NCBI GenBank assembly: GCA_029945195.1
Contig: GCA_029945195.1_4117.1
DNA from: a phage
Length of the DNA stretch: 64,000 bases
Reading direction: 5' to 3' (one strand)
Made by a program: the position numbers and the translations under genes. How positions within the stretch are numbered: position 1 is the stretch's first letter; each line of letters starts with the position of its first letter. Positions 16,619-63,506 of this stretch are shown piece by piece. The notes beneath the pieces are model-generated. The model had not been told where the DNA came from. It saw only the letters and a program-made list of their open reading frames with translations, and ran no database searches.

Positions 16619-16648
16619 ATGATTGATATTATTTTCAAGGGAGTCCCT

Positions 16649-17458: not shown

Positions 17459-17670
17459 TTATTCTAGAAAAATCATATCAATATACTGAACGCATCGCTG
17501 CCAGACAACTTGAAATCCTCATAATATACGAAGAGACTTCTGATTTAAACTTAGCCGAGGTATTGGAAAATGAAATACTTTTGGGTGCATTCTTGGGAAC
17601 AGACTATCAGGAGTATTATGAGGAAAAGTATTTGTCATCTCTTGAGAAATACGTCAGGAGCAAACTATGA
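17455..17670 (+). CDS. family-A array protein (LGTDYQ)
   Basis: tandem paralog; ATGA overlap. Confidence 0.65.
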   Translation: MIILEKSYQYTERIAARQLEILIIYEETSDLNLAEVLENEILLGAFLGTDYQEYYEEKYLSSLEKYVRSKL

Positions 17671-17894
17671 AACATTTAAGTAATATAGAGAAGAATAAAA
17701 TTATCATTGCTGTAATAAACAAATATTTTACACTTCCACAAAAAGAATGTTTATCTATAAGGGAACACAGGATAAACACCACCGAGATTCGCATGTTGGC
17801 TGTACTGGGGACTAACTTCCAAGAAGGCTATGTTCATGAGCACATCGTTGCACTCACTAATTACATAATGGACAAATGTAATGAACATCATTAA
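17667..17894 (+). CDS. family-A array protein (LGTNFQ)
   Basis: tandem paralog; ATGA overlap. Confidence 0.65.
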   Translation: MKHLSNIEKNKIIIAVINKYFTLPQKECLSIREHRINTTEIRMLAVLGTNFQEGYVHEHIVALTNYIMDKCNEHH

Positions 17895-18105
17895 TAACTT
17901 TGAATACGAGGCCCGTGCTAAGAGTGCCAGAAAAAAAGAGAACACCATTTACTTCACTATGATGTACTTACAATGGACTGAAATTGAAGAAAAGGTTGCT
18001 GAAGTATGGATGTTGGAATTCATGGGGACGCAGTATCAGAATAGGTTTGCGGGTGAGTATATCAATGTTCTTATGAAACAAATAGAAAGAAAGGAAAAGA
18101 ACTAA
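17881..18105 (+). CDS. family-A array protein (MGTQYQ)
   Basis: tandem paralog. Confidence 0.6.
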   Translation: MNIINNFEYEARAKSARKKENTIYFTMMYLQWTEIEEKVAEVWMLEFMGTQYQNRFAGEYINVLMKQIERKEKN

Positions 18106-18263
18106 TGGTTTTCATTAACATATCTGACCAACTCGATACTAAACTAAAAGTCGAGCAGAGTGAGGGATGGATGCTGTACTTTCTTGGAACTTCTCATCAG
18201 AATTTTTATGTCCATGAACACATAGTTGCACTCACAAATCTAATAAGGGATAAATGTAAATGA
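18105..18263 (+). CDS. family-A array protein, short member (52 aa, not in track)
   Basis: hand-translated; LGTSHQ motif; TAATG and ATGA junctions. Confidence 0.5.
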   Translation: MVFINISDQLDTKLKVEQSEGWMLYFLGTSHQNFYVHEHIVALTNLIRDKCK

Positions 18264-18517
18264 AACACTTGACGAACGATGAATATTCACTTAGAATTCG
18301 AAAGCTCACCCCAGAAGCAAGACTAATCTACGATGACGGTGAACTTTCATGGAACGAGATGAAAGTTAAAGTTCATGAGCTATGGTTGCTGTACTTTGTG
18401 GGAACCCAATATCAAGAGAAATATTGTACCGATTATCTTGAACAACTAATGGATCTTATACAGATAAAACTAAATGAACGAATTGTGGAAAAATATGAAG
18501 ACTTTATCAAGCACTGA
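18260..18517 (+). CDS. family-A array protein (VGTQYQ), 3' extended
   Basis: reads past usual KL stop into next gene, consistent with a 1-nt shift at the junction. Confidence 0.55.
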   Translation: MKHLTNDEYSLRIRKLTPEARLIYDDGELSWNEMKVKVHELWLLYFVGTQYQEKYCTDYLEQLMDLIQIKLNERIVEKYEDFIKH

Positions 18518-18746
18518 GTATCAGACTGCCCTCTTCTCTCTTCTTAACACCCTTAGAAAAAACTATGCATTACATGGTGCACCTGAATTGGATGTTATCA
18601 ACGGTGATGTTTATCTTATGAAATTCATTGGAACAAACTATCAAGAACTGTTCACTCAACGATATATCTCTGCACTGAGAAACGAAATATCAGATAAAAC
18701 CCGCCAAGCCCAAAGAGAATGGAAGAGACAATGCAACAAAGACTAA
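18474..18746 (+). CDS. family-A array protein (IGTNYQ)
   Basis: tandem paralog; start at canonical junction. Confidence 0.6.
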   Translation: MNELWKNMKTLSSTEYQTALFSLLNTLRKNYALHGAPELDVINGDVYLMKFIGTNYQELFTQRYISALRNEISDKTRQAQREWKRQCNKD

Positions 18747-18982
18747 ATCACAAAATGTATTTTAAACTATTACAGAATCTAGGACAAAAACACTATGATA
18801 CAGTATCTGAAATATTACCCTATGATATCATGCGTTTAATTCATAGTGAGGCAGAGATGCTTGTACTGATGACAGGCACTGATAAAACAGCAATTACCAA
18901 ATCTATAGATATGTTCATCGATGCACACTGCCAACACATTAGAACCGAGATATGGAGACGTGAGAATGAAAATCCTGACTGA
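18719..18982 (+). CDS. family-A array protein, divergent (MTGTDKT)
   Basis: tandem position; degenerate motif. Confidence 0.5.
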   Translation: MEETMQQRLNHKMYFKLLQNLGQKHYDTVSEILPYDIMRLIHSEAEMLVLMTGTDKTAITKSIDMFIDAHCQHIRTEIWRRENENPD

Positions 18983-19181
18983 GCATGAGTATTACAATAG
19001 GTTAAGAACTATACAAGGAAAAGTCTCGTGGACTTTTTTAGATAATTCTATTGCAGAAGCGGACCGATGTGTTATAATAGCTGAAATGAAGCTATTACTC
19101 TTCATTGGGACAAACTATCAAAGTATCTACATAGACGCATGGTTAAGCAGCTTACGTCTGAAGTCGGTGAGTTTAAAATGA
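18966..19181 (+). CDS. family-A array protein (IGTNYQ)
   Basis: track ORF trimmed to ATG 18966 (MKILTEHEY). Confidence 0.6.
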   Translation: MKILTEHEYYNRLRTIQGKVSWTFLDNSIAEADRCVIIAEMKLLLFIGTNYQSIYIDAWLSSLRLKSVSLK

Positions 19182-19396
19182 GAAAATTAATAGGTTTCGA
19201 ATATGTTAAGCTTCTACAAACCTGTGGAATCAGAAGGAGAATGATTCAAAAGGATAAAAGAATTGCCGAAGAACGAAAGTATATAATGATAACTGAACTT
19301 TATGTCTTAACACTCTTAGGCACAAACTATCAACACACTTATGTAGACCTATGGATCGATGCACTACAGAAAGAGGTTAAAAGTAAATGCAAATGA
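19178..19396 (+). CDS. family-A array protein (LGTNYQ)
   Basis: track ORF trimmed to ATGA-junction ATG 19178. Confidence 0.6.
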   Translation: MRKLIGFEYVKLLQTCGIRRRMIQKDKRIAEERKYIMITELYVLTLLGTNYQHTYVDLWIDALQKEVKSKCK

Positions 19397-19605
19397 TTAA
19401 TTTAAGTAAAGACGAATTTTATGTTATACTGGCGAAAACTTATCCAGCACGTAAGGCCGTTTATGATAGTCACATTATTGAACCCTCAAAGAAGTTGATT
19501 TTAGTAAATGAGATAAAGATGCTTTCAGTCTTAGGAACAAACTATCAAGAGAATGCTGTACTGTTGTTAATTGATGCCCTCAAGAGAGAGATACAAAGTA
19601 AATGA
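19387..19605 (+). CDS. family-A array protein (LGTNYQ)
   Basis: tandem paralog. Confidence 0.65.
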   Translation: MQMINLSKDEFYVILAKTYPARKAVYDSHIIEPSKKLILVNEIKMLSVLGTNYQENAVLLLIDALKREIQSK

Positions 19606-19826
19606 TTAATTTAACTTACCATGAATATCAAAAACGTTTAAATGCATCCAGAGATATAAGGATTCAAATATTCAATAACAAAAGATTGAAGCCTGATATC
19701 AGGAAAATCAAAATCATAGAAGCAGAGTTGTGCAACTTTCTAGGGACGAACTATCAGGCAGGTAAGGTAAAAAACTATCTTAAAGAACTCATGAATAGTA
19801 TTGAAAATAAATGTAAGGGTAATTAA
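19602..19826 (+). CDS. family-A array protein (LGTNYQ)
   Basis: tandem paralog; ATGA overlap. Confidence 0.65.
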   Translation: MINLTYHEYQKRLNASRDIRIQIFNNKRLKPDIRKIKIIEAELCNFLGTNYQAGKVKNYLKELMNSIENKCKGN

Positions 19827-19827
19827 C

Positions 19828-20094
19828 ATGAAAATGATCAATTTAAGTAAAGATGAATATAACGAGCGACGTGCAAAAATCTCAACTAAACGCACCGAAA
19901 TCTATTACAGCGAAGAAATCAAACACGACAAGAAGATGATTATGATACGTGAGTTGATAATGGGTGCTATGCTAGGAACTAACTATCAAGAACAAGAGGT
20001 ACAACTCGTATTAAATGAATTACTAATGGAAATCAGAGGTAAGCTGTACTTTCATCAAATGACCCGCCCACTAAGGTGTACTAGGAATGATTAA
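19828..20094 (+). CDS. family-A array protein (LGTNYQ), C-terminal extension
   Basis: track ORF (TTG 19801) trimmed to ATG 19828. Confidence 0.6.
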   Translation: MKMINLSKDEYNERRAKISTKRTEIYYSEEIKHDKKMIMIRELIMGAMLGTNYQEQEVQLVLNELLMEIRGKLYFHQMTRPLRCTRND

Positions 20095-20302
20095 CATCAC
20101 ATTACAAGAAAGGTTCATACGCATCAACTATGCAATTTCCAAATTAGATGCTACAATAGGATTTCAAAGTCTACCATACAAAACCAGATTGTTATTAGAG
20201 TGTGAAGCTAAGTTGGGTGTACTGTTAGGGACGCAACACCAACAACGATATGTGGAAATCTGGATTGACCTTTTAACCCAAAATATATATGAGAGAATGT
20301 AA
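20087..20302 (+). CDS. family-A array protein (LGTQHQ)
   Basis: tandem paralog. Confidence 0.65.
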   Translation: MINITLQERFIRINYAISKLDATIGFQSLPYKTRLLLECEAKLGVLLGTQHQQRYVEIWIDLLTQNIYERM

Positions 20303-20533
20303 ATGCAAAATGAAATGATATACATAACGAATGAAGAATTTCAAGAGAAGATGTTAAAAACAAAAAACATTAATCTTAAGTTCGTTCCAAATCAATCAAT
20401 ATATGAAGTATCTGCAAATGTATTGTTTCAGAAGTTACCATACGTTCTTGGAACTGATAAACAAGAATTTATGGTTCAAAATATGATTGAACATCTTATG
20501 ATGAGTATTAAGGAAAAAGTAAATGCAAAATGA
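20303..20533 (+). CDS. family-A array protein (LGTDKQ)
   Basis: tandem paralog; MQNEMIY N-terminus shared with next gene. Confidence 0.65.
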   Translation: MQNEMIYITNEEFQEKMLKTKNINLKFVPNQSIYEVSANVLFQKLPYVLGTDKQEFMVQNMIEHLMMSIKEKVNAK

Positions 20534-20768
20534 AATGATATACTTAACATATAATGAATACGTCGAGAGATTAGTTAGTGCCAAGAGATATACAAATCAA
20601 CTTCCTCACAACCCAAACCAAACCCCAGAGGAAAAGAATGCGGAAGCTCTATTCCAAGCACTACCATACCTTCTTGGAACTGATAGGCAGGAGTATCACG
20701 TTGAACGTATAATTAAATCTCTTAAAATCACTATTAAGGAAAAGATACATGAAACACTTGACAGATGA
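20523..20768 (+). CDS. family-A array protein (LGTDRQ)
   Basis: tandem paralog. Confidence 0.65.
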   Translation: MQNEMIYLTYNEYVERLVSAKRYTNQLPHNPNQTPEEKNAEALFQALPYLLGTDRQEYHVERIIKSLKITIKEKIHETLDR

Positions 20769-20979
20769 TGAACATGGGCTTATAGTAATGGATGTAATCA
20801 ACATCGAATACAAAAAGTTGATACGCTATCGTTGTTATGAAGATAAGCAACTAGTTCTAGCAGAACAGAAGTTGTTTCGACTCTTAAACACAAACTACCA
20901 AGCACAATACGAAGAATCGTATATGTACCTTTTGGCGAGGAAAGCAAAAAGAGATTATGAAAATTTTAAGCAAAGGTGA
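20749..20979 (+). CDS. family-A array protein (LNTNYQ)
   Basis: tandem paralog. Confidence 0.65.
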   Translation: MKHLTDDEHGLIVMDVINIEYKKLIRYRCYEDKQLVLAEQKLFRLLNTNYQAQYEESYMYLLARKAKRDYENFKQR

Positions 20980-21178
20980 TTCAGTAATATTACTTATAGA
21001 GAGTTCAAGTAAATTCTTAAACATAACACTGTCTGATATAGATGAAGATGATAAAGAAGTACTGAGAGCAGATTTAAGAGTACTGTTACATCTCGGAACA
21101 AACCTACAAGAAGAATATGTAGAGTACTACATTGATGAACTTAAAGAATCAGTACTGAGAAGATGCAAATGCGAATGA
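20957..21178 (+). CDS. family-A array protein (LGTNLQ)
   Basis: tandem paralog. Confidence 0.65.
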   Translation: MKILSKGDSVILLIESSSKFLNITLSDIDEDDKEVLRADLRVLLHLGTNLQEEYVEYYIDELKESVLRRCKCE

Positions 21179-21390
21179 TTACCGACGAAGAATACCTAAC
21201 AATTATAAATGGATTGTTTTTGAAGTTGTTTGTTATTAACACATCAGATATACCAGATATGGATAAAATTATTAAGAGAAATGAAATCTATGTTCTAGCT
21301 ACCCTGGGAACTAACTATCAAGAATACGATATTAATGATTATATTAATACACTTAAAGGAGCAATTGAACTAAAATGCCAAAACCACTAG
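21163..21390 (+). CDS. family-A array protein (LGTNYQ)
   Basis: tandem paralog. Confidence 0.65.
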   Translation: MQMRMITDEEYLTIINGLFLKLFVINTSDIPDMDKIIKRNEIYVLATLGTNYQEYDINDYINTLKGAIELKCQNH

Positions 21391-21590
21391 GAACAGCAGA
21401 ATACATTGAACTCATGGGATTACACTTCTCATCCTTTCAGAAACTTATGCGAGAATCAAAGAATGATTTAGAATATACCATCAGAGGTTCAGATTTAAGA
21501 ATGCTTCTCACCCTAGACACAGATTCCCAAGAGCGTTTTGTCAATGAGCACATTAGAGCACTTTTAATGGAAATTCAAAGTAAACTATGA
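21375..21590 (+). CDS. family-A array protein (LDTDSQ)
   Basis: tandem paralog. Confidence 0.6.
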   Translation: MPKPLGTAEYIELMGLHFSSFQKLMRESKNDLEYTIRGSDLRMLLTLDTDSQERFVNEHIRALLMEIQSKL

Positions 21591-21802
21591 AGGTAATATC
21601 AAACCAAGAGTACTTGGCACTATTCAGGAAGAATAATCACAAATATATGGCACTTGATTCAAGAACTGATATAAGTGAACTTGAAAAAAATCTTTTGCGT
21701 TCAGAGATGATAGTACTGACACTCTTAGGAACACAGCATCAAGAAAGAACTGTTAATTCACACATAGAAATACTTAAGAAGCTTATACAGGAAAAGTTAT
21801 GA
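21587..21802 (+). CDS. family-A array protein (LGTQHQ)
   Basis: tandem paralog; ATGA overlap. Confidence 0.65.
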   Translation: MKVISNQEYLALFRKNNHKYMALDSRTDISELEKNLLRSEMIVLTLLGTQHQERTVNSHIEILKKLIQEKL

Positions 21803-22020
21803 GAATCATAACACAACAAGATATGTTTAAGTTCACAAGGGATTATGCATCTGAATTTGATGCTATATTATCAAAAAGTTACAACAACCCTTATACAGAA
21901 GATGTACACTACAATGAATTATGGGTGTATATACTTTTAGGTACAGATCATCAAGAGCAAGCCGTACAGAGGTATTTGAGTGCTTTAAGTACTGCTACTG
22001 CTAATGGAGTATGTGTTTAA
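21799..22020 (+). CDS. family-A array protein (LGTDHQ)
   Basis: tandem paralog; ATGA overlap. Confidence 0.65.
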   Translation: MRIITQQDMFKFTRDYASEFDAILSKSYNNPYTEDVHYNELWVYILLGTDHQEQAVQRYLSALSTATANGVCV

Positions 22021-22021
22021 T

Positions 22022-22264
22022 ATGAAAGTACTGACAGAATTAGAAATGTATCATAGATTTAATAAGTACTATCATTTACTTAAACCTATACAGAGGATTA
22101 AGTGTCCCTTTGTAGTGAAACAGGTATTAATTTATGAGCATAAGTTATTTGTATCATTAGGTACGAATGAACAAGATTATTATTTGAAGTTGTACTTAAT
22201 TACTTTAATTGAATTGATTAATTCCAAAACTCAGAAAGCGAAGAAATATAAAAATGAAAACTAA
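22022..22264 (+). CDS. family-A array protein (LGTNEQ)
   Basis: track ORF trimmed to ATG 22022. Confidence 0.6.
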   Translation: MKVLTELEMYHRFNKYYHLLKPIQRIKCPFVVKQVLIYEHKLFVSLGTNEQDYYLKLYLITLIELINSKTQKAKKYKNEN

Positions 22265-22595
22265 AATTCAACTCAGGGTATACATATCGTATGAAAATAT
22301 ATACGTTAAAAGTAGTCTATGTAAAGATGTAATGGACTACAAAGGTAAACCATTCACAGTTACTTACAGTTTAACAGGAGGTTTATATATCTCTTTTGCT
22401 AATTACGAAAATAATATGTACGAACACATTGACATTGAAGATTTAAGTACTTTATCACCAGAGGAATACTTCCAGGAATCATTAGTATGGGATTTAGAGT
22501 TCCCTATGCCATTAGTACATAAGATGATAGTACTAATGAAAGAATCTAAACAGGAGCCTAATGGTGATTATGAAGAACACATTATTGAGTATTAA
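22254..22595 (+). CDS. family-B array protein (EExYFQxS motif)
   Basis: LSPEEYFQESLVWD; first family-B member. Confidence 0.6.
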   Translation: MKTKIQLRVYISYENIYVKSSLCKDVMDYKGKPFTVTYSLTGGLYISFANYENNMYEHIDIEDLSTLSPEEYFQESLVWDLEFPMPLVHKMIVLMKESKQEPNGDYEEHIIEY

Positions 22596-22685
22596 GAGTT
22601 CTGATAGTACTGAGAGTACAAATGTTCTTGACAGTACTTTTCATTACTGATATAGTGCACCAACGTTAATCATAGGGTACAGATT

Positions 22686-22931
22686 ATGTTGAATTTTTTA
22701 AATTTCCTTATCGTCTTGTGTATTGTTCTTGGGATTGCACCATTTGTATTGTATTTCATGGATTCAGATGAAATGCAGAAGATGAATTGCACAAGGACAG
22801 GACAGAGTAGAGTAGAGACGATTCTTATGCCTGTTACGGTTATTGTTAACAACATGCCAATTACGAACATGGTCCCTACCCTAACGACAACGTACCAGTA
22901 CTCTTGTACAGACGGAGAGAGGTGGAGATAA
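22686..22931 (+). CDS. small membrane protein (81 aa)
   Basis: hydrophobic N-terminus LNFLIVLCIVLGIAPFVLYF; promoter-like TTGACA..TATAGT upstream. Confidence 0.45.
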   Translation: MLNFLNFLIVLCIVLGIAPFVLYFMDSDEMQKMNCTRTGQSRVETILMPVTVIVNNMPITNMVPTLTTTYQYSCTDGERWR

Positions 22932-23254
22932 TGCGTAAATTCAATTGTATTGTACGTAAGAATTCATGTTACATTGTAGTAGCTGATTTTAATACGGGTT
23001 CTGGGTTGAAGATATTTGAGTACAGAAAATGTAATAATTCTTTTCATTGGAAATTAGGTGCAAGAAAAACAAATACAATTTCAGTACCGAATTTATGTTC
23101 TATCTCTGAAGAAGAAGAGTTTCAGTACATGTTAGTACACGATGATTCTTTAGGTTTTACATTAGAAGATATGAAGAAAGTGCAACAGCAGATGATTGCA
23201 CATTGTCATCTTCCAAAGAATTTTGTTCAACACGTATGTGAATTCCACATATAA
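22931..23254 (+). CDS. family-B array protein
   Basis: track ORF trimmed to ATG 22931 (SD GGAG); SEEEEFQYMLVHDD. Confidence 0.55.
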   Translation: MRKFNCIVRKNSCYIVVADFNTGSGLKIFEYRKCNNSFHWKLGARKTNTISVPNLCSISEEEEFQYMLVHDDSLGFTLEDMKKVQQQMIAHCHLPKNFVQHVCEFHI

Positions 23255-23362
23255 GAGAAGAATATGAAATTTAATATTCACAGAATGAAGATCAATGTTG
23301 ACACTCCATTTGAATAGTGTTAACATGTTTACCTATTCAATTTTAAGATAAGGTACAATGAT

Positions 23363-24172
23363 ATGAAATTTTTAACAGAATCTGAAGCAACCAATTTGAT
23401 TATGAAAAAATTTAGTTCTGGTGATTTAAAGAAATCAGCATCTTACAAAGGTTCAGTTGCCTTGAGTTTATATCTTGGTACAAATTATCAGGAAGCAGCA
23501 CAAGAGCAATATATTAATGCATTAAAGGAAGAGATTCGAGAAAAAATTAAAATTAATAAAGATTGCAGTACTGATTTTTCAATTGAAAAGTTATTGAATA
23601 TGTTTGTCAATACAACAGAGACACCAAGAAAAGAAGATGTTGGTTTAGGTCATGTAAGTGATTTTATGTACGCAGCATATGAATCTTTAGTACAGACTGG
23701 GATTGCTAAATCTGTAATTGAAGTGCATCGTAAATTTGAAGAAGGTGATGAAATTAGACAATTAGTTAAAGATAAAGAAAATAAGATTGGTCGTTTATTT
23801 GTTATTAAGGACAATGATAGTTCTTCATATATTTTGATTAATACAGATAAGACATTCAATTATTACAAGGATTTACATTATTATATGATTACCAATTACG
23901 GAATATCCTATTTAAGAAGTAATTGGGAAGTTGAATATGTATTTTATTTTAACAAACATTCGCATGGTTCAACAAGAACAAAAGATTTATATGAGCAAGC
24001 ATTAATGATTGCTACGCCTAATGAAAATGGCATTTTCAGTAAAGATTACGATAAGGTATTGGAACGTTTAAAACACAGAGCTTCGTGCGGGACAATGCCG
24101 TGTGATTATAGTATTACACAATACAATAAAAATTATCATTGTGGTGTTTTTAAGGAACAATATAAATCATGA
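23363..24172 (+). CDS. chimeric protein: family-A motif N-terminus + about 200-aa unique C-terminal domain (269 aa)
   Basis: LGTNYQEAAQEQYINALKEEIREK at residues 38-61, then unrelated C-terminal region. Confidence 0.6.
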   Translation: MKFLTESEATNLIMKKFSSGDLKKSASYKGSVALSLYLGTNYQEAAQEQYINALKEEIREKIKINKDCSTDFSIEKLLNMFVNTTETPRKEDVGLGHVSDFMYAAYESLVQTGIAKSVIEVHRKFEEGDEIRQLVKDKENKIGRLFVIKDNDSSSYILINTDKTFNYYKDLHYYMITNYGISYLRSNWEVEYVFYFNKHSHGSTRTKDLYEQALMIATPNENGIFSKDYDKVLERLKHRASCGTMPCDYSITQYNKNYHCGVFKEQYKS

Positions 24173-24489
24173 AATTTAATATAGCAAAAACATCTAATGT
24201 ATGTATATTTGGTTATGCTGATGAGTTAGGTGATCTTGACATTCTATTGTACAAAAAGGATGGTGTTATGCATTTCAAGTACCAGGATGAAGAGGCAGAC
24301 AATTATCCTTTACCTAATTTAGTACAAATGCAGGAAGAGGAATTATTCCAGTACAGCTTAGTATATGACATTGATATTTGCACGATGCCAGTACTAATTA
24401 ATATTCAAAAAGTGATGCTCGATGTGTTTGATAGGCTAATACAAGGCACACAAGGAAGAACCATATATGTCAATGTACAAGACAATTAA
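24169..24489 (+). CDS. family-B array protein
   Basis: QEEELFQYSLVYD; ATGA overlap. Confidence 0.6.
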   Translation: MKFNIAKTSNVCIFGYADELGDLDILLYKKDGVMHFKYQDEEADNYPLPNLVQMQEEELFQYSLVYDIDICTMPVLINIQKVMLDVFDRLIQGTQGRTIYVNVQDN

Positions 24490-24682
24490 TCAAGAATGGA
24501 AGACCCAAAAGTACAGGGAATTCAGTACTAGTTTAACAAAAGATGCATTGAATTTAAAAAGAACAGAGTTTGATATGTTTATTTTTCTTGGAACACGTTC
24601 ACAAGAACAATACATTCATTATTATATAAGTTCATTGCGAACGGAGATCGTATGCAAAACACAGGGTATTATAAAAAAGTAA
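24467..24682 (+). CDS. family-A-like protein (LGTRSQ) inside family-B zone
   Basis: motif FLGTRSQEQYIHYYISSLRTEI. Confidence 0.55.
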   Translation: MSMYKTINQEWKTQKYREFSTSLTKDALNLKRTEFDMFIFLGTRSQEQYIHYYISSLRTEIVCKTQGIIKK

Positions 24683-24918
24683 ACCAATATTTGTACGCTA
24701 CAAAGTACAGGGATTTTTGTTTAAAGGGTGGTGATGAAGATTTTTCTTTGCGATTATCAGAATTTAATCTGTTATTTTATCTTGGTACATCGGAACAAGA
24801 AGAAATGGCACAGAAATTTATCAAGCACCTTGAACAAAAAATTCATATGCAAATTTTGATGCTTAAGGTACATAATGAGATAAACAAATATGAACCCAAC
24901 AATAGTACAGGATCTTAA
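24652..24918 (+). CDS. family-A-like protein (LGTSEQ)
   Basis: motif YLGTSEQEEMAQKFIKHLEQKI. Confidence 0.55.
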   Translation: MQNTGYYKKVNQYLYATKYRDFCLKGGDEDFSLRLSEFNLLFYLGTSEQEEMAQKFIKHLEQKIHMQILMLKVHNEINKYEPNNSTGS

Positions 24919-37002: not shown

Positions 37003-37535
37003 TGAAAGTTAACATCAATGACTTTGATGCATTACAAGATTTATCAAAAAAGATTCGTATCATCGTACCAGTACTCAAAAAATGCAGTACTGGTTTAATC
37101 GATCCTAGTACTGTTGTTAATGAGAAGTACAATTTTCATTATGTATTACAGGGTACTGGGGCATTCCAGAAGTGTGAGGTGCGTGAGACACACGTAATTG
37201 ATACATCATTGTTTTCTATTGGTGCACCTGTGTCGAATAATACTATTTTCCTAGACAACGCTGGAAATATTCAACAATTAACATTTAAGAAAAGGAAAAA
37301 GAACAATAACATTGGTGTGTATGCGATGAAGTGGGGTCAACCTGATTTGAAGCGTGAAATTCACATCCCTAAGTACAATTACAATGCATTTGACGAACAG
37401 TGTTTTCAACTATCGTGTACTGACCCTGACTATGCTATCATTCAGTTCTATATGGAATTGCAGATAGCATTTAACAGTAATTTGTATATTAACTTATTGG
37501 CGATTAACATTGATGAAGTATTCAAAAACATTTAA
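36999..37535 (+). CDS. family-B array protein (divergent)
   Basis: FDEQCFQLSCTDPD. Confidence 0.5.
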   Translation: MMKVNINDFDALQDLSKKIRIIVPVLKKCSTGLIDPSTVVNEKYNFHYVLQGTGAFQKCEVRETHVIDTSLFSIGAPVSNNTIFLDNAGNIQQLTFKKRKKNNNIGVYAMKWGQPDLKREIHIPKYNYNAFDEQCFQLSCTDPDYAIIQFYMELQIAFNSNLYINLLAINIDEVFKNI

Positions 37536-37731
37536 TCGAATTGAATACATGAGAACTGTGAGTGCAGTGTGGGACATATGGTTCACTACTAAACCAAAAA
37601 TGGATTACCATGACTTTAAGCTCTTGTTCTTCGTTGGCTCTAACAAACAGGATGTTGCAATGAAGGGTTATATTCAGCACTTACAGGAACTAATCCAGAA
37701 GAGAATATATGAAAATAATAGACCAAAATGA
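37510..37731 (+). CDS. family-A-like protein (VGSNKQ)
   Basis: FFVGSNKQDVAMKGYIQHLQELI. Confidence 0.5.
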   Translation: MMKYSKTFNRIEYMRTVSAVWDIWFTTKPKMDYHDFKLLFFVGSNKQDVAMKGYIQHLQELIQKRIYENNRPK

Positions 37732-37900
37732 CATTGCTAAACTATTCAATATATATTCTACTAGAATGATGCAAACAGACTCATATAGTACTGAATTCAA
37801 AGAGTTGAAAGTCCTGATGTACTTGGGAACCCAATATCAGGAACAAGTTATTTTGGAATATATTAATTCGCTGAAGAAGGATATCCGTTATGTACGATGA
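37709..37900 (+). CDS. family-A-like protein (LGTQYQ)
   Basis: MYLGTQYQEQVILEYINSLKKDI. Confidence 0.55.
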   Translation: MKIIDQNDIAKLFNIYSTRMMQTDSYSTEFKELKVLMYLGTQYQEQVILEYINSLKKDIRYVR

Positions 37901-46711: not shown

Positions 46712-47217
46712 GTTTATTAAATGCACGAGAATTAGTTGAGATGTATGAGATCTTATCTTCATATAAAAATTCTCCAAAAGATGTAATTCTAAACAAAAAG
46801 TTCCATGTCAGTGTTGAACATATAACAAATATAGATATGATTTCTTTGGTGGAAAGTAATAAGTCAGGTCTGGAGCGTGATATCATGCGTTTGATTTATA
46901 TTCCTAAACCATCATATACTAATGATAGTACTATTAGCAATGAGACATTCATGTATAGTCCTGGTACGGATTCTACTATAGTATCGCTGTCCAATAAATC
47001 AATGGATACTTTCCAATTCATCTATACCAGTACTGATAACATTGAAGAAATTGAATTTCAAAACAATACATTAAGTCCATGTAGTAGTGTTATAACCTTT
47101 ATGTCATATCTATGGTCAACTAAAACAAGTGCTGTTGTATATAGTTCAAATTATACACAAGATAGTATTGTTGAATCATATAAAGTTCTAAAGGAATACT
47201 ATGAAAATAACAAATGA
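46708..47217 (+). CDS. family-B array protein (divergent)
   Basis: NIEEIEFQNNTLSP. Confidence 0.5.
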   Translation: MSLLNARELVEMYEILSSYKNSPKDVILNKKFHVSVEHITNIDMISLVESNKSGLERDIMRLIYIPKPSYTNDSTISNETFMYSPGTDSTIVSLSNKSMDTFQFIYTSTDNIEEIEFQNNTLSPCSSVITFMSYLWSTKTSAVVYSSNYTQDSIVESYKVLKEYYENNK

Positions 47218-47782
47218 TTTTATTAAAAGTGTAGTACACCCTATGCTTAGTATTATGAAAAAAATACAGAATCTACCGGAAGATAACGATTACAAGTTTA
47301 ATCGTTTTGATTCAGATGTGTTTTGTATTGAAATTGAAATTAATAACAATCGTAATTTACATTTAAAATTCAAAGAATCTTCGAGTCCGTACTACAACTT
47401 TGATATGAATTTTAAAATAGATACTGACATTGAAGAAAACATAATATCAAATCATACTAGCAAAAATGGTTTTATGCATAGAACTACTATGTACAATAAT
47501 AAAAATAGTATTATATCTAAATGGAATCAACAATTCACTAAAATTTGTGAAATTGAATATAATGATTTTGGTGAAGAACATTACTTTCAGTTAAGTACAA
47601 TTCATGAACTTCCACCATATGATTATGTTAAAACATGGTTTGATATTCATAATATAATTGATGATGCAATCAAACTTCCATTTGGTGTGTCAATATCATA
47701 TACTGCTCCTAAAACATTTGTTTTTACTGAAGATATGATTATGAAAAAGATATGGGCAATCATCCCACTTATGATGGATTAA
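47201..47782 (+). CDS. family-B array protein
   Basis: FGEEHYFQLSTIHE. Confidence 0.6.
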   Translation: MKITNDFIKSVVHPMLSIMKKIQNLPEDNDYKFNRFDSDVFCIEIEINNNRNLHLKFKESSSPYYNFDMNFKIDTDIEENIISNHTSKNGFMHRTTMYNNKNSIISKWNQQFTKICEIEYNDFGEEHYFQLSTIHELPPYDYVKTWFDIHNIIDDAIKLPFGVSISYTAPKTFVFTEDMIMKKIWAIIPLMMD

Positions 47783-55430: not shown

Positions 55431-55465
55431 AGGTGACAACATAATATGTTGGTCACCTTTTTTAA
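55431..55465 (+). terminator. rho-independent terminator
   Basis: AGGTGACAACAT..ATGTTGGTCACCT then TTTTTT. Confidence 0.65.
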
Positions 55466-56004
55466 TCCTGAAAGGTTCCCATAAGGAAATGATTAAAAGC
55501 CTAATCCACTCGAAAATGTAGAGGGTAGATGAGTAGTCCTTTCAGTACGAACAGCAGATGAAACCCGTTAGATGATGGCATAGTTTGAACCACTCACGGC
55601 AATGCGGCTGTATAAAGAACTCCAATAGGATAAAGAGAGTTCCTCGATAGACATATAAGGATCGCACCTTACCAATTATCTAAGGGAGATTTCATAAGAA
55701 ATATGCGGTCGGAATTATACAATATAGTTGCGTCCAAATTTTGTGAAATCAAATACAAGTACTGGTCATATGGTATTTGTATTATGTGTCGGGATGTTTA
55801 AGACCGACGACCGTTGCTACAAGAACCGCGATAGAGAGAAACAGAGCAACCCGCTTTCGTCTCGTAAGAGAATTCGTGATATGAACTATGTGAAGGCCAC
55901 CAGCGTCAAATTTTTTTGTTCTTTCCCCTGCGGGGGGGATGAAATATGCTCAAGCAAACCCCGTCAATATTAATTAAAAGAAAATAGTACTTGTAGAATT
56001 AGAC
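55466..56004. other. ~540-bp noncoding island, visibly less AT-rich than flanks
   Basis: no convincing ORF (track ORF 55728-55973 has no SD and odd composition); holds CCACCAGC 55897-55904 and T7..G7 element. Confidence 0.4.
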
Positions 56005-57989: not shown

Positions 57990-58269
57990 TGAAATAAATC
58001 TTACAGGATATTTTTTACAAGAATCAATGATTAAATTTAGTGAAAAATTTTCAGTACTGGATGGTATCGAAATGTGGCATGTCAAACCACTGTTCCACAC
58101 TTTCAGTAAAGAGCACAAAATGTTATTGACTGAAGCGAGTAAATCAAATAACATATGTGAAATCAAAATTGGTGTAAATGTCTATAAAGGGATGGTTATC
58201 TTTTTTGACAATAACAGCAACTACTTTTATATTGTTAAGGAGCATTACGTTGACAAATACAAATACTAA
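57982..58269 (+). CDS. hypothetical protein (95 aa)
   Basis: track ORF (TTG 57970) trimmed to first ATG 57982. Confidence 0.45.
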   Translation: MCDEINLTGYFLQESMIKFSEKFSVLDGIEMWHVKPLFHTFSKEHKMLLTEASKSNNICEIKIGVNVYKGMVIFFDNNSNYFYIVKEHYVDKYKY

Positions 58270-58864
58270 TACATACTTCCGTTATCTTCGCTTAGGTCTT
58301 TCCCTACGTCCGATCCGTGGAAAGTGCGATTCACTCGCTGACCTTGACTATGCATATGCATTACATCATGAAGGTGTACAGTATGTATTGGGTGATTATG
58401 GTGAATTTGAAGAAACAAATGACAGTACTGGAATTAATGCTGGTGTAGAAAATCTTAACAACATTGCTAACAGTTCTCGCCATGACATTGTGTTACAGAT
58501 TCAAAACTTTATTGAGCAGCACACAGGTAAACGTGTTTGGTGCTATGTCGGTACTGATGCACAAATGTCAATTTCATTCGGTAACGATGAAGGATATGTT
58601 GCACAGCTTATTATGGATTTTGAATCTGAAGAGAAGTTTTTAGAATTCAAAGAAAAGATTATTCAGTCACTTGTTGATATGGGTATCCCCGAAGATAAAA
58701 TGCCAGAAGTTCAAAACATTGATGAATTTGTTTTGATTCCATCTGATGAGAAATATGATGCAATGTTTACTGCTCTTAATATTCCAGGAGTTATTGTGGA
58801 GTACTTTGATGATGGTGATGATAGTATCTATATCGATCTAGATGACGATGACGACGATGAATAA
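58250..58864 (+). CDS. hypothetical protein with poly-Asp C-terminus (204 aa, TTG start)
   Basis: track ORF 58178-58864 trimmed to TTG 58250: SD AAGGAG 58237-58242, 7-nt spacing; ends DLDDDDDDE. Confidence 0.5.
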   Translation: MTNTNTNTYFRYLRLGLSLRPIRGKCDSLADLDYAYALHHEGVQYVLGDYGEFEETNDSTGINAGVENLNNIANSSRHDIVLQIQNFIEQHTGKRVWCYVGTDAQMSISFGNDEGYVAQLIMDFESEEKFLEFKEKIIQSLVDMGIPEDKMPEVQNIDEFVLIPSDEKYDAMFTALNIPGVIVEYFDDGDDSIYIDLDDDDDDE

Positions 58865-58871
58865 TGTACAT

Positions 58872-58898
58872 AGCCCGACATAAGTTCGGGCTATTTTT
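58872..58898 (+). terminator. rho-independent terminator
   Basis: AGCCCGA-CATAAGT-TCGGGCT then ATTTTTG. Confidence 0.65.
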
Positions 58899-58910
58899 GT
58901 AAGGGGATAT

Positions 58911-59186
58911 ATGAATTATAAAGTTCTACAATATACATACAGTGTTTTGTTTGATTTACATCACAATGGAAGATATCTCAATACAATACGAGAAAACACA
59001 TTCACTCATACTATCTGGATTAATCACTTAATAATGATACGTGAATATTTTGTTAATAGTGAGATAATCATTCGTGGTAAAAAACAGAAGATAGAACAAG
59101 TTAATAGTTTTGGTGGTAAATTAGTACTATCATTTATAGATAGTAATACTAATGAAAGATATAGTATAGATTTGGTGGACATATGA
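58911..59186 (+). CDS. family-C tandem small protein
   Basis: MNYKVLQYTYSVLFDL..; tandem paralogs follow. Confidence 0.55.
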   Translation: MNYKVLQYTYSVLFDLHHNGRYLNTIRENTFTHTIWINHLIMIREYFVNSEIIIRGKKQKIEQVNSFGGKLVLSFIDSNTNERYSIDLVDI

Positions 59187-59449
59187 ATTATAAAGATTTC
59201 CTACTAACATACAAGATTATTCGAGATTTAGCACACGACAATGATAGCCCTAGTCTAGAAGACACATGCACTGAAATGATTCATACAATTCGTGGTAAGA
59301 TTAAAAAAAAATTCAGTACTGTTATTATTGGTGATGACCATGCAGAATTTTCTGATATAATCATTAGACGTGATGGTAAAGTTGAGGTTCAGTACTACAC
59401 TGATTTTGGATTTACCAGTATTCCGTTGGAGATATTCCCTTGGGATTAA
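59183..59449 (+). CDS. family-C tandem small protein
   Basis: MNYKDFLLTYKIIRDL; ATGA overlap. Confidence 0.55.
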   Translation: MNYKDFLLTYKIIRDLAHDNDSPSLEDTCTEMIHTIRGKIKKKFSTVIIGDDHAEFSDIIIRRDGKVEVQYYTDFGFTSIPLEIFPWD

Positions 59450-59751
59450 ATTTAAATGATATACAATTCACTTATAAGATCCTATATGATTTGTATGATG
59501 TATACCTTGTTAGTAACAAAATAGGTTCACATAACCCATACAAAGAACAACCATTTATTGATTTATATATTGAGTACTTAGATTCAGTAGGTGAATATAT
59601 AAAAAAGAATTACAGTACTTTTATCGACGGAAATGATATATTCGAGTTCTCTGGAGTTAAATCATACAATGGGATTATCCATGTTGAATTTCTTGAAATA
59701 ACCGATAGGGGATTTATCGAGATTAAAGTTGTGAAGTTGGTGAATTTATAA
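59440..59751 (+). CDS. family-C tandem small protein
   Basis: LNDIQFTYKILYDLYD. Confidence 0.55.
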   Translation: MGLNLNDIQFTYKILYDLYDVYLVSNKIGSHNPYKEQPFIDLYIEYLDSVGEYIKKNYSTFIDGNDIFEFSGVKSYNGIIHVEFLEITDRGFIEIKVVKLVNL

Positions 59752-59761
59752 GAGGTTACAT

Positions 59762-60073
59762 ATGTTATTAAATGATATACAATTCACATACAAATTTTTG
59801 TATATCCAATACGCTACGGTTGATGCTGGAGAATATCTCTACGGTGAAATCTATCGTTCGGTATGGATAAAGTTTTTGGATGAATTACATGAATATTACC
59901 ATGATTTGTGTATAGTTCGTGATAATAAAATATACAAATTCCGCGATATTGTTAGTCATAGCGGTAAGCTACGATTGGAATTGAGTACTGATAGTGATGT
60001 TGATTGGATTGGTGTAAATTTACTGGAGTTGGAGAATGAAAAACAACTTAAAGGAAATACAAGTATTTTATAA
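59762..60073 (+). CDS. family-C tandem small protein
   Basis: LNDIQFTYKFLYIQY. Confidence 0.55.
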   Translation: MLLNDIQFTYKFLYIQYATVDAGEYLYGEIYRSVWIKFLDELHEYYHDLCIVRDNKIYKFRDIVSHSGKLRLELSTDSDVDWIGVNLLELENEKQLKGNTSIL

Positions 60074-60320
60074 ATTCTTATACTTGTCATATGTAAAAGA
60101 TGAGTACTATGAAAGTGTGTATTATTTTTTATGGCAACATTACCGTACTATAGTAAGAGATTTATATATAGGAAAATCTATCATATCCAATGGTGAAAAA
60201 TGTATATGTACTGATGTTGTTAGTTTTAATGGTTCTTTAACACTGTGTTTCAGATGCGATAATAATAGTGGGTCATTTTCATTAAACGTATATCAGTTAG
60301 AAGGAATAAATTTTGAATAA
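60036..60320 (+). CDS. family-C tandem small protein
   Basis: LKEIQVFYKFLYLSY. Confidence 0.55.
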   Translation: MKNNLKEIQVFYKFLYLSYVKDEYYESVYYFLWQHYRTIVRDLYIGKSIISNGEKCICTDVVSFNGSLTLCFRCDNNSGSFSLNVYQLEGINFE

Positions 60321-60513
60321 ATGTCCATATTGTAACAGTACTCAATTAGCTCGTTTCCGTTTAGATTCAGACTGGGCGACTGGTGCTGGTGATTTCTTCC
60401 CTATTAATGATGATGCAGAATACACCGAAGAACAGCACAAAGATTTTGATAAATCATGGCGACCTGACATTGAGTGCATTTATTGCCTTAATTGTGAGCG
60501 TGTTCATGACTAA
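60313..60513 (+). CDS. zinc-ribbon small protein (66 aa, TTG start)
   Basis: CPYC..(x45)..CIYCLNC, two CxxC pairs; TTG start in track; overlaps neighbours. Confidence 0.35.
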   Translation: MNKCPYCNSTQLARFRLDSDWATGAGDFFPINDDAEYTEEQHKDFDKSWRPDIECIYCLNCERVHD

Positions 60514-60769
60514 AGCTGAACTAATAGTTCATACATATAAAATGATATCAAGTACTGAGTTATCATATAGTGCAGATAATCCAGTACTGGATTATTTTGT
60601 TGAATTATTGAAAGAGCATTATATTGGTAAATCACTGATTCTTAATAATATTAATTTCACGGTAAAGGATGTAGCACCTGGAAAAAACGTACTAATAGTA
60701 TGTGTTACTTCATCTGATAACCCAGTATACCCAATATCAATAATTTTTGAGATATTAGGAGATTTATGA
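60506..60769 (+). CDS. family-C tandem small protein
   Basis: track ORF 60383-60769 trimmed to ATG 60506; ELIVHTYKMISS. Confidence 0.5.
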   Translation: MTKAELIVHTYKMISSTELSYSADNPVLDYFVELLKEHYIGKSLILNNINFTVKDVAPGKNVLIVCVTSSDNPVYPISIIFEILGDL

Positions 60770-61056
60770 ATATCATTTTAATGCAGAAAACATATGCTAT
60801 ATTGGTGAAAGATTATTCCATTACTTTCGATTCACAAGAAAGTGCTCTACATAACCTATACAAAAACGTAACACAAGAATACAGAAATATGTTTTCTGAC
60901 TTAGTAGTAGGAAGGTATTTCAGTACTAGAAAATACCCAAAACTTCAAATAGTTGATGTTTCTTTTTATTTCAATGGTCATATTACTATTCATAGTTTAG
61001 ACCAAGATTCAACAACGTACTTAAACTTTTCATTTGATGAGGTAACATTTTTATGA
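60766..61056 (+). CDS. family-C tandem small protein
   Basis: MQKTYAILVKDY; ATGA overlap. Confidence 0.55.
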   Translation: MNIILMQKTYAILVKDYSITFDSQESALHNLYKNVTQEYRNMFSDLVVGRYFSTRKYPKLQIVDVSFYFNGHITIHSLDQDSTTYLNFSFDEVTFL

Positions 61057-61229
61057 GAACAGTATTTTTTATCTGGAGTCTTTTTTCATTGGCAGTACTG
61101 ACAGTATGTGGGATTTGTTTCCTTTCATCAATTAATACTTGGTATATCAATTTACTATTTCCATTTGTCGGTGTTGGATTAGGATTTACTTTACATAGTG
61201 TATGTAAGGATTACAATGAGAACAAATGA
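61053..61229 (+). CDS. small membrane protein (58 aa, not in track)
   Basis: hand-translated MRTVFFIWSLFSLAVLTVCGICFLSS..; two hydrophobic segments. Confidence 0.45.
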   Translation: MRTVFFIWSLFSLAVLTVCGICFLSSINTWYINLLFPFVGVGLGFTLHSVCKDYNENK

Positions 61230-61494
61230 AGTACTTGTTGCTGAAACAATGAAGATGATTTACGATATCACGTCAGCACAGAATATGCCATATCCAACTA
61301 AGTCTTTATTGAGGACTGTGTATCTGGGGATAGTACAGGAGTACTACAAATCCAAGCACAGAAGCATTATTAGTGTTTATCGTGATTATGAAAGGATTCG
61401 TATTTTATTCTGGAACAAGAATCGAGTACGTTCTGAATGTGATCTAGTAGATTTTAAATTAGAGAATCTTTATTGCTATAAACAGGGACAATAG
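61216..61494 (+). CDS. hypothetical protein (92 aa)
   Basis: track ORF 61198-61494 trimmed to ATG 61216. Confidence 0.45.
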   Translation: MRTNEVLVAETMKMIYDITSAQNMPYPTKSLLRTVYLGIVQEYYKSKHRSIISVYRDYERIRILFWNKNRVRSECDLVDFKLENLYCYKQGQ

Positions 61495-61552
61495 TTTAAT
61501 TCATGATATAATAATGGGTAAGGAACAATAATTAACACAAGGAGTGTGTGAA

Positions 61553-62281
61553 ATGCTTGACCGTATCCGTTTCGCTACAGAGATGGCGAATGAATTAAAC
61601 ATGGCAAATTTCCAAATGTTAACATCAGTAATGGCTGAACATGCATGTGCTTATTCTGTAAGTGGTGTGCAGTGTGGTCAGGAGAATATGTTAGCAGATG
61701 TTTATAGTGAAGTACAAAGTAAGCAATATAGTGTAAAGACATATAAGGATAAGTTTGTTAGTCTTTATATGAACGAAGATATTGCCGAAGACCGCAAATT
61801 CACTGATTTTATTATTGAACGCCGAGTATCAGGTGTATCTAATCCTAATGCATCAAGCGATGAAGTTTTTGCAGAAGTACTGAAAGATATATACGAAAAT
61901 GAATTAAAAAGTAAGAATCATTACAATGTACGTGAAACTAACACAGTGCTCTTGGGATATGATGAAGACGAAGAATACTATTATTTTCGTATGACTGAAG
62001 TTCCTTTTGAATACAAATCTCCATATACAACTACAGTGAAAGAATTTACTGAAAAAAGTAAAAACTTTATGAAGCATGAAGGAAATCGTTGTAGTATAAA
62101 TGGTTATGACGAAAATGGCATTCACATTTATGAATGGGTTCACCCAAATTGTCAGACATACACTCGTTGCTTGAAAAAACGTTATAATTTAGAAGAGCAT
62201 GAATCATTCTATTTTAAAGTTAAGAAGCAAGGTTATACTCGCCCCGCCGATTCTGAATTGATGGGTATGATATATTTCTAA
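61553..62281 (+). CDS. hypothetical protein (242 aa)
   Basis: track ORF (GTG 61544) trimmed to ATG 61553: SD AAGGAG 61539-61544; promoter-like GATATAAT upstream. Confidence 0.6.
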   Translation: MLDRIRFATEMANELNMANFQMLTSVMAEHACAYSVSGVQCGQENMLADVYSEVQSKQYSVKTYKDKFVSLYMNEDIAEDRKFTDFIIERRVSGVSNPNASSDEVFAEVLKDIYENELKSKNHYNVRETNTVLLGYDEDEEYYYFRMTEVPFEYKSPYTTTVKEFTEKSKNFMKHEGNRCSINGYDENGIHIYEWVHPNCQTYTRCLKKRYNLEEHESFYFKVKKQGYTRPADSELMGMIYF

Positions 62282-62291
62282 GGAAACTGCT

Positions 62292-62573
62292 ATGGATTTT
62301 TATCTACACACATGGACATACGAACAATATATTACATTATATCTTGAAATTATTAACACAGAACCTAGGTGTGGTTGTTGGTTCGCAGATATCATAAAAG
62401 AGTATGCGGACGAATTTGAGTTCGTGTATCTTGGTACTGATATATTTGTAAAAAGTGTAGGTAAAACCGGACGAATCACTGATATAGATTACGACACTGT
62501 TAGTGTGAATTTCTATGTTGATTTTCCTGATGCTGGCGTTGATGGTGTATATTGTCTTTATGAAATAATTTAA
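62292..62573 (+). CDS. hypothetical protein (93 aa)
   Basis: ORF track. Confidence 0.55.
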   Translation: MDFYLHTWTYEQYITLYLEIINTEPRCGCWFADIIKEYADEFEFVYLGTDIFVKSVGKTGRITDIDYDTVSVNFYVDFPDAGVDGVYCLYEII

Positions 62574-62580
62574 ATTTTTA

Positions 62581-62604
62581 GGCCAGCGTTTGCTGGTCTT
62601 TTTT
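62581..62604 (+). terminator. rho-independent terminator
   Basis: GGCCAGC-GTTT-GCTGGTC then TTTTTT. Confidence 0.65.
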
Positions 62605-62927: not shown

Positions 62928-63506
62928 ATGAATGTATTAGAATTAAGTACTAAGCTGATTACTATGCGTAACGAGTGGTACGATTGGTTTTATAATGGTA
63001 CTGATATGGATTTTTCAAAATATCCATTTATGGAATCAGGATGTGATGCAAGATACCGCTGGTTGAGCAAAGATTGTTCTGGTTTACATATTCTAGTTGA
63101 CGATAGTGGTCAGGGAATTATAAAAGATTTACTTCAAGTTGAACAACTCGTCCATGATAATTGGTGTGATAACGATCCATACCTTGGAAATATGATTTAT
63201 GTAAGTGAAGATGATTGCATATTCGTTATCCAGCGTCATGGTAATTCTATGTTTTATGTAGCAGACAGCAGTACTCCAGAAGGTGCAGCAGCCGATGGTC
63301 TTATGCCTAAGATTGATATATTGGAATTTGGATTACCTGAGCACTTCCAGATTAGTACTTTATACGATATTCCACCACTTGAGTTCTTTGAAGAATTTAA
63401 ATTGTACTACAATGATCTTCAAAAATTGAGTACTGAGAGTCGCCTTGAAATAACCGTCAAGTACATGGACGGAACGAAATTAACCGATACGGGGATAGAA
63501 TTTTGA
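62928..63506 (+). CDS. family-B-like protein (192 aa)
   Basis: LPEHFQISTLYDIPPLEFFEEF; SD AGAGGA. Confidence 0.55.
   Translation: MNVLELSTKLITMRNEWYDWFYNGTDMDFSKYPFMESGCDARYRWLSKDCSGLHILVDDSGQGIIKDLLQVEQLVHDNWCDNDPYLGNMIYVSEDDCIFVIQRHGNSMFYVADSSTPEGAAADGLMPKIDILEFGLPEHFQISTLYDIPPLEFFEEFKLYYNDLQKLSTESRLEITVKYMDGTKLTDTGIEF

Follow-up and report, generated by a model that had tools for sequence, protein, structure and literature searches.

Giant phages carry hundreds of unnamed genes, much of that content in arrays of small genes, and the question raised by one such array is whether its members form a single family, how old that family is, and what its proteins might do for the phage. The array lies at positions 58911 to 61056 of a 64,000-nucleotide (nt) stretch of phage DNA (here called the window), which belongs to an Asteriusvirus jumbo coliphage: the segment from 58000 to 62000 is 99.9% identical to phage phAPEC6 and 99.8% identical to phage 121Q, and about 30 additional close relatives of this segment were found. 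It corresponds to 121Q genes 422 to 429, each a "hypothetical protein" in all records examined. An initial annotation had placed seven consecutive genes of 87 to 103 amino acids (aa) here and had called them a tandem paralog family. We recovered the same seven coordinates and lengths (Table 1; p1 to p7), and our analysis supports the family. The account of the whole that we consider best, and probable with some reserve, is an ancient, diverged paralog array encoding accessory proteins that may bind host factors.

Taking tandem paralogs as at least three adjacent, same-strand homologous genes, we found such a run here. The p1 to p5 proteins were connected to one another by pairwise BLASTP and phmmer, with stronger links through their orthologs in phages A4 and Turkey5. 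When an iterative hidden Markov model (HMM) seeded with p4 alone was searched against all plus-strand open reading frames (ORFs) of the window and of ten related loci, it settled on p1 to p5, p7, their orthologs, and ORF453 and ORF456 of phage RaK2; it recovered no other plus-strand ORF of the window. The p7 protein was reached via an intermediate, since its Turkey5 ortholog entered the iteration at an E value of 4e-7 and p7 afterwards scored 1.6e-13. The link to p6 came from the reciprocal search, in which an HMM built only from p6 matched family members with E values from 1e-4 to 3e-3 and had a sub-threshold list that was nearly all family; controls made from the upstream genes and from the zinc (Zn)-ribbon gene gave no matches. 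In profile-profile comparison by hhalign, p6 aligned to the p1-p5 core with a probability of 79.5%, compared to 0.1 to 0.8% for controls, and p6 and p7 ranked first after the accepted members among approximately 480 ORFs. Thus, p1 to p5 are joined by pairwise and profile matches, p7 through an intermediate, and p6 by reciprocal profiles together with its predicted fold (see below).

Sequence identity within the family is low. In a MAFFT alignment, the copies are 12 to 24% identical to p1 and share one invariant tyrosine, and pairwise identity between copies within the genome ranges from 9 to 31%; the homology of the seven proteins holds statistically despite these values. The N-terminal block by which the initial annotation had recognized the family fits, as first written, only p3 and p4, but a relaxed form is present in all seven: the motif [TF]-Y-[KSA]-[IFMVL]-[ILV], within the first 17 residues, picks out exactly the seven array genes among 158 plus-strand ORFs. 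This motif was defined post hoc, after the data had been seen, and its chance expectation is 0.17 ORFs.

We modeled the p4 protein with AlphaFold2 from a 21-sequence family alignment (predicted local distance difference test score, or pLDDT, 82.6; predicted template modeling score, 0.69). The model has helices at residues 3 to 20 and 25 to 46 and strands at 50 to 53, 56 to 66, 69 to 75, and 82 to 86; in the predicted family fold, a helical hairpin at the N terminus precedes a four-stranded beta meander. A model of p6 made with its own orthologs only has the same order of two helices and four strands, so that structure prediction agrees with the sequence profiles. A search of the BFVD database with the p4 model returned family members along with several small proteins of RaK2. 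Five of the top ten matches of the p6 model were also in the p4 match list, and a 96-aa slurp01 protein, consistent with a p7 ortholog, was found at a template modeling score of 0.67 to 0.71. The RaK2 proteins H6X4J9, H6X4K0, H6X4L0, and H6X4R2, some with adjacent accessions, show weak fold likeness to the p4 and p6 models (template modeling scores of 0.3 to 0.6). Judged from such models, the fold may be commoner in RaK2-like genomes than sequence searches reveal.

The two most diverged members are where the family is open to challenge. The p6 and p7 proteins are more diverged by far than p1 to p5, and one could propose that they, and perhaps others, are unrelated small genes whose composition and short N-terminal motif are alike by chance. 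Their identity to the rest is 9 to 21%, with BLASTP E values between 4e-4 and 0.06 in a very small database; p7 reaches only an E value of 0.007 against the conservative profile and a probability of only 33% in hhalign against the p1-p5 core; and the PHROGs database places p2, p6, and p7 in separate families. It also tells against a seven-member family that the membership of p6 and p7 would rest on E values of 1e-2 to 1e-4 from small local databases and that the p6 model, at a pLDDT of 65, is of moderate quality. Nevertheless, the entry of p7 into the p4-seeded HMM through Turkey5, the near-exclusive family content of the p6 sub-threshold list where controls found nothing, the rank of both proteins directly behind the accepted members, and the shared secondary-structure order and overlapping fold-match lists of p6 and p4 make chance resemblance very improbable in our judgment.

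The PHROGs assignments also show how the family has been seen so far. The p3 and p4 proteins match phrog_21004, whose function is unassigned there, over their full length, p1 (Table 1) and p5 (1.6e-4) match it weakly, and p2, p6, and p7 do not match it. The remainder is split into phrog_32291, 35943, 33961, and 28826, and the wider family that spans these entries is not recognized as a single unit in PHROGs. No array protein scored above a curated cutoff in Pfam or NCBIfam, PADLOC gave isolated weak matches only, and in the PDB a profile search of the sequences found nothing and the models had no informative fold match. A link to restriction endonucleases was considered from the matches of p2 to PADLOC REase_II (E value, 7.8e-4) and Pfam DUF4928 (0.14) and of p6 to DpnI (0.099), and was judged to be chance; the REase_II match occurs in 1 of 21 family members and is absent from p2 orthologs, and no catalytic residues of a PD-(D/E)XK fold are conserved in the family.

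To describe the distribution of the family, we combined searches of different depth. Among 5.8 billion clusters, a word-indexed search found 37 proteins; among 1.84 billion representatives, an exhaustive HMMER search found 21, including two unrelated repeat proteins (P0048 and P0051) that match only a beta-hairpin stretch of 19 to 57 residues, repeated several times, and are not homologs. The named or traced family matches come from 121Q-like phages or from Escherichia coli assemblies and metagenomes carrying such phage DNA, and tblastn with p3 found 33 phage records, all of them Escherichia or Salmonella Asteriusvirus. With ORF453 and ORF456 of RaK2 as members, and with the family not detected in phages 7t3 or GAP32, the family is limited to jumbo phages of the 121Q/RaK2 type.

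The divergence of the copies bears on the age of the array. Copies this different point to old duplications and not to a recent amplification, and we found no sign of recent "accordion" growth, since the same seven slots are present in all eight genomes of the 121Q/PBECO4 clade. Array formation is thus ancient rather than continuing. Between species, the ratio of nonsynonymous to synonymous divergence (omega) is 0.11 to 0.68 for the members, with synonymous divergence saturated, and 0.02 to 0.13 for dam, a cytidylyltransferase-like gene, gp421, the Zn-ribbon gene, and gp432. Purifying selection at saturated synonymous sites indicates that the array genes are real.

Within the eight close genomes of the 121Q/PBECO4 clade, we also computed the ratio of nonsynonymous to synonymous polymorphism (pN/pS). 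It is 0.31 to 0.57 for p1 to p4, p6, and p7, compared to 0.02 to 0.09 for gp421, the Zn-ribbon gene, a transmembrane (TM) protein gene, and gp432. Six of the seven copies thus change in protein sequence 5 to 15 times faster than their flanks while purifying selection persists. At the level of whole genes, no sign of positive selection was seen, with no gene having a pN/pS above 1 and omega below 1 in every comparison.

Rates of this kind, well above the flanks and below 1, are what would be expected if the genes were evolutionary ballast: old duplicates under weak constraint in a genome with ample packaging space, without distinct functions and dispensable singly or together. The lack of invariant polar residues (see below) is compatible with that view, as is a slot content that varies between genera, down to the absence of the family from 7t3 and GAP32. 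However, lineages in which synonymous sites are saturated still preserve the reading frames, gene lengths, start overlaps, and N-terminal motif, and omega never reaches 1. One copy, p5, is strongly constrained, and no disrupted member was seen in the well-assembled genomes compared, deletions and fragments being limited to low-quality assemblies. We therefore regard ballast as unlikely.

Comparison of related phages shows that the old copies have been reshuffled. Each array position has positional orthologs in related phages, present as deeply different alleles. Between the window and Turkey3, identity is 65 to 88%, rises to 100% over p4-p5, and drops to 32 to 52% in p6; between the window and A4, p1 to p4 cannot be aligned and positions 60010 to 61050 are 89 to 100% identical. 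The p6 protein is 92% identical to the A4 copy and 27 to 29% identical to the Turkey3 and ph0011 copies, a mosaic pattern which indicates that the p6 slot holds two alleles of that low identity beside a nearly invariant Zn-ribbon gene. The array is a recombination mosaic in which diverged alleles are shuffled between lineages. At a finer scale, p3 of the window differs from its counterpart in phage G17 by nine amino-acid changes, six of them at residues 67 to 85 of the sheet, and the surrounding DNA is approximately 100% identical.

Some apparent rearrangements were set aside. Deletions in the Salmonella phages SD-1_S14, SD-6_S16, SD-2_S15, and SD-15_S21 (L013-L016) were first taken for recombination between paralogs; they are probable assembly artifacts and were not used. 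The gaps have a recurrent endpoint at approximately 60911-60916 and occur also outside the array, and these genomes are 25 to 40 kb short with many fragmentary coding sequences. A p2-p3 fusion from the same phages (P0031) is an apparent chimera arising from the probable artifact.

The remaining question is what the array proteins might do. A Dam methylase gene lies upstream of the array, and genes for the RNA ligase RnlA and the PseT kinase lie downstream; in T4, the counterparts dam, rnlA, and pseT serve to counter restriction by the host and anticodon nucleases. The family has no invariant polar residue (only Y10 or G68 is invariant, by the alignment used), which argues for non-enzymatic proteins, and most are mildly acidic, with isoelectric points (pI) of 4.7 to 5.8, which makes nucleic-acid binding unlikely. 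In its main text, the paper on the phAPEC6 virion proteome makes no mention of gp384-389, which suggests a non-structural role. A passage of the paper on phage CBB (PMC5259590) voices the suspicion that, in this phage group, short hypothetical ORFs clustered in blocks serve in early host takeover, and this suspicion, together with the position near the dam, rnlA, and pseT homologs, fits proteins that bind host factors.

We therefore put forward, tentatively and as something short of probable, that the array encodes non-structural, non-enzymatic accessory proteins that, for host takeover or counter-defense, each bind a different target in the host. The proteins would probably be expressed together, and the conserved hydrophobic core and the N-terminal motif would keep the fold while the surfaces diversify. 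Several observations pull the other way. Since pN/pS never exceeds 1, relaxed constraint and an arms race account equally well for the fast evolution. With a pN/pS of 0.04, p5 is as conserved as the flanks in the 121Q/PBECO4 clade. No promoter fits between the terminator-like hairpin upstream of the array (Table 1) and p1, and we found no transcriptome or expression-timing data for this phage group in the literature. The argument from neighboring genes is itself weak, as most genes of the genome are unannotated.

A more specific form of the host-factor proposal is a counter-defense panel, in which each paralog would be a small binder neutralizing a different immunity protein or other factor of the host, the deeply diverged alleles of each slot, traded among co-circulating Asteriusvirus phages, would be the record of an arms race, and the Zn-ribbon and membrane proteins would be invariant partners. 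We regard this as doubtful; if it is true, the array would represent a new family of phage anti-defense proteins with a fold not yet in the PDB.

Two other roles were weighed. The proteins might be virion or assembly accessories, such as chaperones, decoration proteins, or whisker-associated subunits, given that other arrays of this phage group encode tail fiber-like proteins. However, the tail fiber-like array is a different gene set, the array proteins lack repeats and are encoded among nucleotide- and RNA-metabolism genes and not among structural genes, and they matched no structural-protein fold; together with the main text of the phAPEC6 proteome study, this leaves a virion role very unlikely. 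Alternatively, they might be small nucleic acid-binding regulators, expanded like the Zn-ribbon family of phage G and partnered by the adjacent Zn-ribbon protein. Lineage-specific expansions of small putative DNA binders do occur in jumbo phages, the C-terminal small beta domain loosely resembles SH3/KOW barrels (with a sub-threshold KOW match, at an E value of 0.1, for the downstream protein d3), and a conserved Zn-ribbon gene sits inside the array, but with the acidic pI values of the family we consider this reading, too, highly improbable.

The Zn-ribbon gene is intercalated between p5 and p6. The initial annotation had described it as nested at this junction; the ORF is real, but it is a separate gene that overlaps each neighbor by 8 nt. 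It is not a member of the array family. Its pN/pS is 0.02, it is conserved as far as Klebsiella phage RaK2, and only six protein clusters were found for it. A search of IMG/VR with the gene as an anchor returned only 121Q and RaK2 themselves, and in Pfam it matched only generic Zn-ribbon models, below threshold. We rejected an identity as Lar (PF14354), for which the best score was 12.4 bits (E value, 0.19; three of five orthologs) against a gathering score of 28.6 bits and other generic Zn-ribbon models scored equally or better.

The array genes themselves are arranged head to tail and tightly packed, all on the plus strand. Start and stop codons overlap as ATGA where p1 meets p2, p6 meets p7, and p7 meets the TM protein gene, and the 3' end of p4 overlaps the start of p5 by 38 nt in a different frame. 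The p5 start at 60036 has a GGAG 7 nt upstream and retains the family N-terminal motif. In the 121Q record, gp426 (p5) and gp429 (p7) start at later ATGs, so that the conserved motif is lost from the annotation. The p5 gene is left unannotated in phAPEC6, PBECO4, and UE-S1, and phAPEC6 also lacks an annotated Zn-ribbon gene. Rfam and tRNA scans of the array region were empty.

The array occupies a variable slot between conserved gp421 and gp432 homologs, both of which are kept throughout the RaK2-like genera, and the content of the slot differs by genus. In 121Q-like and Turkey3-like phages, ph0011, and A4, it holds five members, the Zn-ribbon gene, two members, the TM protein gene, and a gene that we call d1. 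In Turkey5 it holds three members, the Zn-ribbon gene, a p6-like gene, the TM protein gene, a p7-like gene, and two d1-like genes. On either side of the Zn-ribbon gene, RaK2 carries one or two ORFs, with ORF453 and ORF456 detected as members, and contigs of a metagenomic lineage have one member, the Zn-ribbon gene, and then at least five members. In 7t3 and GAP32 the slot holds unrelated genes.

Terminator-like hairpins bound a longer stretch, from 58911 to 62573 (Table 1), and at the place of the upstream one a terminator is annotated in the record of G17. The gp432 homolog is present in every compared locus, out to GAP32, 7t3, and RaK2, and orthologs of the small TM protein, which is not a family member, were found as far as Turkey5. 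By tblastn, the gp421 homolog occurs in 70 phage records, from phages of Escherichia, Klebsiella, Salmonella, Erwinia, Yersinia, Serratia, Cronobacter, Pectobacterium, and Xanthomonas; Pfam and NCBIfam contain no family for it, and its composition is reminiscent of DNA-mimic proteins. In phage ph0011, a 494-aa ORF annotated as hypothetical (L006 6103-7587) lies between the d1 and gp432 orthologs, where other Asteriusvirus genomes have a short gap. Further upstream, positions 55450 to 56000 form a noncoding gap of about 550 nt, apparently richer in G+C, between a G17-annotated terminator and the next gene. It is the sole long intergenic stretch near the array, with only modest promoter-like sites, no Rfam match, and no tRNA.

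Table 1. Features of the seven-gene array and its surroundings (positions in the window)
Feature	Position	Strand	Length (aa)	Properties
gp421 homolog (upstream flank)	58250..58864	+		pI 4.06; net charge -30; poly-Asp/Glu tail; pN/pS 0.04
Intrinsic terminator-like hairpin and T-run	58870..58894	+		from scan; 16 nt upstream of p1 start codon
p1	58911..59186	+	91	iterative HMM E value 8e-29; phrog_21004 match 3.5e-5
p2	59183..59449	+	88	iterative HMM E value 2e-21; BLASTP to p3, 31% identity, 95-97 columns
p3	59440..59751	+	103	TTG start; phrog_21004 at 6e-52; locally variable patch in sheet
p4	59762..60073	+	103	phrog_21004 at 6e-44
p5	60036..60320	+	94	iterative HMM E value 2e-29
Zn-ribbon gene	60313..60513	+	66	C4, C7, C58, and C61 invariant; 71% identical to RaK2 homolog
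p6	60506..60769	+	87	diverged family member
p7	60766..61056	+	96	diverged family member
Small hydrophobic TM protein	61053..61229	+	58	grand average of hydropathy 0.92; pN/pS 0.09; non-member
d1, possible remote eighth member	61216..61494	+	92	basic; hhalign to full family 60%, E value 8.5e-5, N-terminal helices only
gp432 homolog (downstream flank)	61553..62281	+	242	pN/pS 0.08
d3, possible remote member beyond gp432 homolog	62292..62573	+	93	acidic; hhalign 18%
Following terminator-like hairpin	62580..62599	+		from scan

Profile comparisons suggest that the family may reach past 61056, to the d1 and d3 genes. An HMM of d3 matched RaK2 ORF456 at 3e-3, and a metagenomic protein (L019_4200_4511) matched both the d3 HMM (1.2e-5) and the family HMM (2.7e-4). 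A third downstream protein, d4, gave an hhalign probability of 14% against the family, weaker than d1 and d3. In Turkey5 (L005 6437-6970) and a matching metagenomic contig (L011), d1 is doubled as two adjacent diverged copies, which makes it a small tandem pair of its own in Turkey5.

We also compared all plus-strand ORFs of the window with one another by phmmer. The claim that three independent tandem families lie in the window held up: a 29-gene family spans 16619 to 24918 with two further copies at 37510 to 37900 (63 to 97 aa except for one 269-aa member), and a 32-gene family, partly interleaved with it, spans 22254 to 46283 (104 to 207 aa). Neither has a Pfam match, and kinship of the array family with either, or of the two with each other, was rejected at hhalign probabilities of at most 1.1%. 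With all seven array genes counted, 68 of the 158 plus-strand ORFs belong to the three families, and the presence of two more, unrelated families indicates that arrays are a general feature of this genome. Separately, genes of 193 and 192 aa at 47201-47782 and 62928-63506, about 15 kb apart, are mutual paralogs; the second lies just downstream of the array and is absent at that position in Turkey3 and Turkey5.

Several known systems resemble this locus. Like the multigene families of African swine fever virus and the host-range families of poxviruses, the array consists of tandem, diverged small paralogs in a variable region of a large DNA virus, with strain-dependent content. The African swine fever virus and poxvirus genes are non-structural and have been demonstrated to interact with the host, whereas for the array proteins host interaction is our proposal; moreover, with the closest copies only 31% identical, the array shows no recent copy change of the poxvirus "accordion" type. 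In T4-like phages, plastic or "hyperplastic" regions that lie between conserved core genes are filled with small early genes whose function is unknown. The array shares with them a variable slot, packed same-strand ORFs, a position near dam, rnlA, and pseT homologs, and mosaic exchange; those regions contain unrelated ORFs, in contrast to the single-family paralogs of the array. In Bacillus phage G, likewise, one small protein family has expanded greatly within one jumbo lineage, with about 35 copies of a Zn-ribbon protein of unknown function (PMC7824862), but there the Zn-ribbon is what expands, whereas in the array an alpha/beta protein has expanded and the Zn-ribbon is single copy and conserved.

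The array thus offers a concrete unit, seven small proteins and a conserved Zn-ribbon protein, with a defined predicted fold, a conserved core, and variable surfaces. If its proteins are inhibitors of host factors or defenses, the phage counter-defense repertoire would gain a new family, and if they are not, the array would still be a clean example of jumbo genomes built from long-lived duplicates. The closest parallels are the paralog sets of the RaK2-like phages, in which passages on gene content put approximately 10% of RaK2 gene products (PMC3622015) and 22 CBB ORFs (PMC5259590) among paralogs; this is the same phenomenon in the same phage group, with short hypothetical genes most alike to one another, and RaK2 ORFs 453 and 456 belong to the array family. 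Those passages describe neither the family nor its fold, boundaries, mosaic evolution, or embedded Zn-ribbon gene, and tandem duplication is cited as a route of jumbo-genome expansion in a passage of PMC7247149. The array family itself is undescribed, yet the kind of feature that it represents is known in jumbo phages, and the example is an ordinary one.

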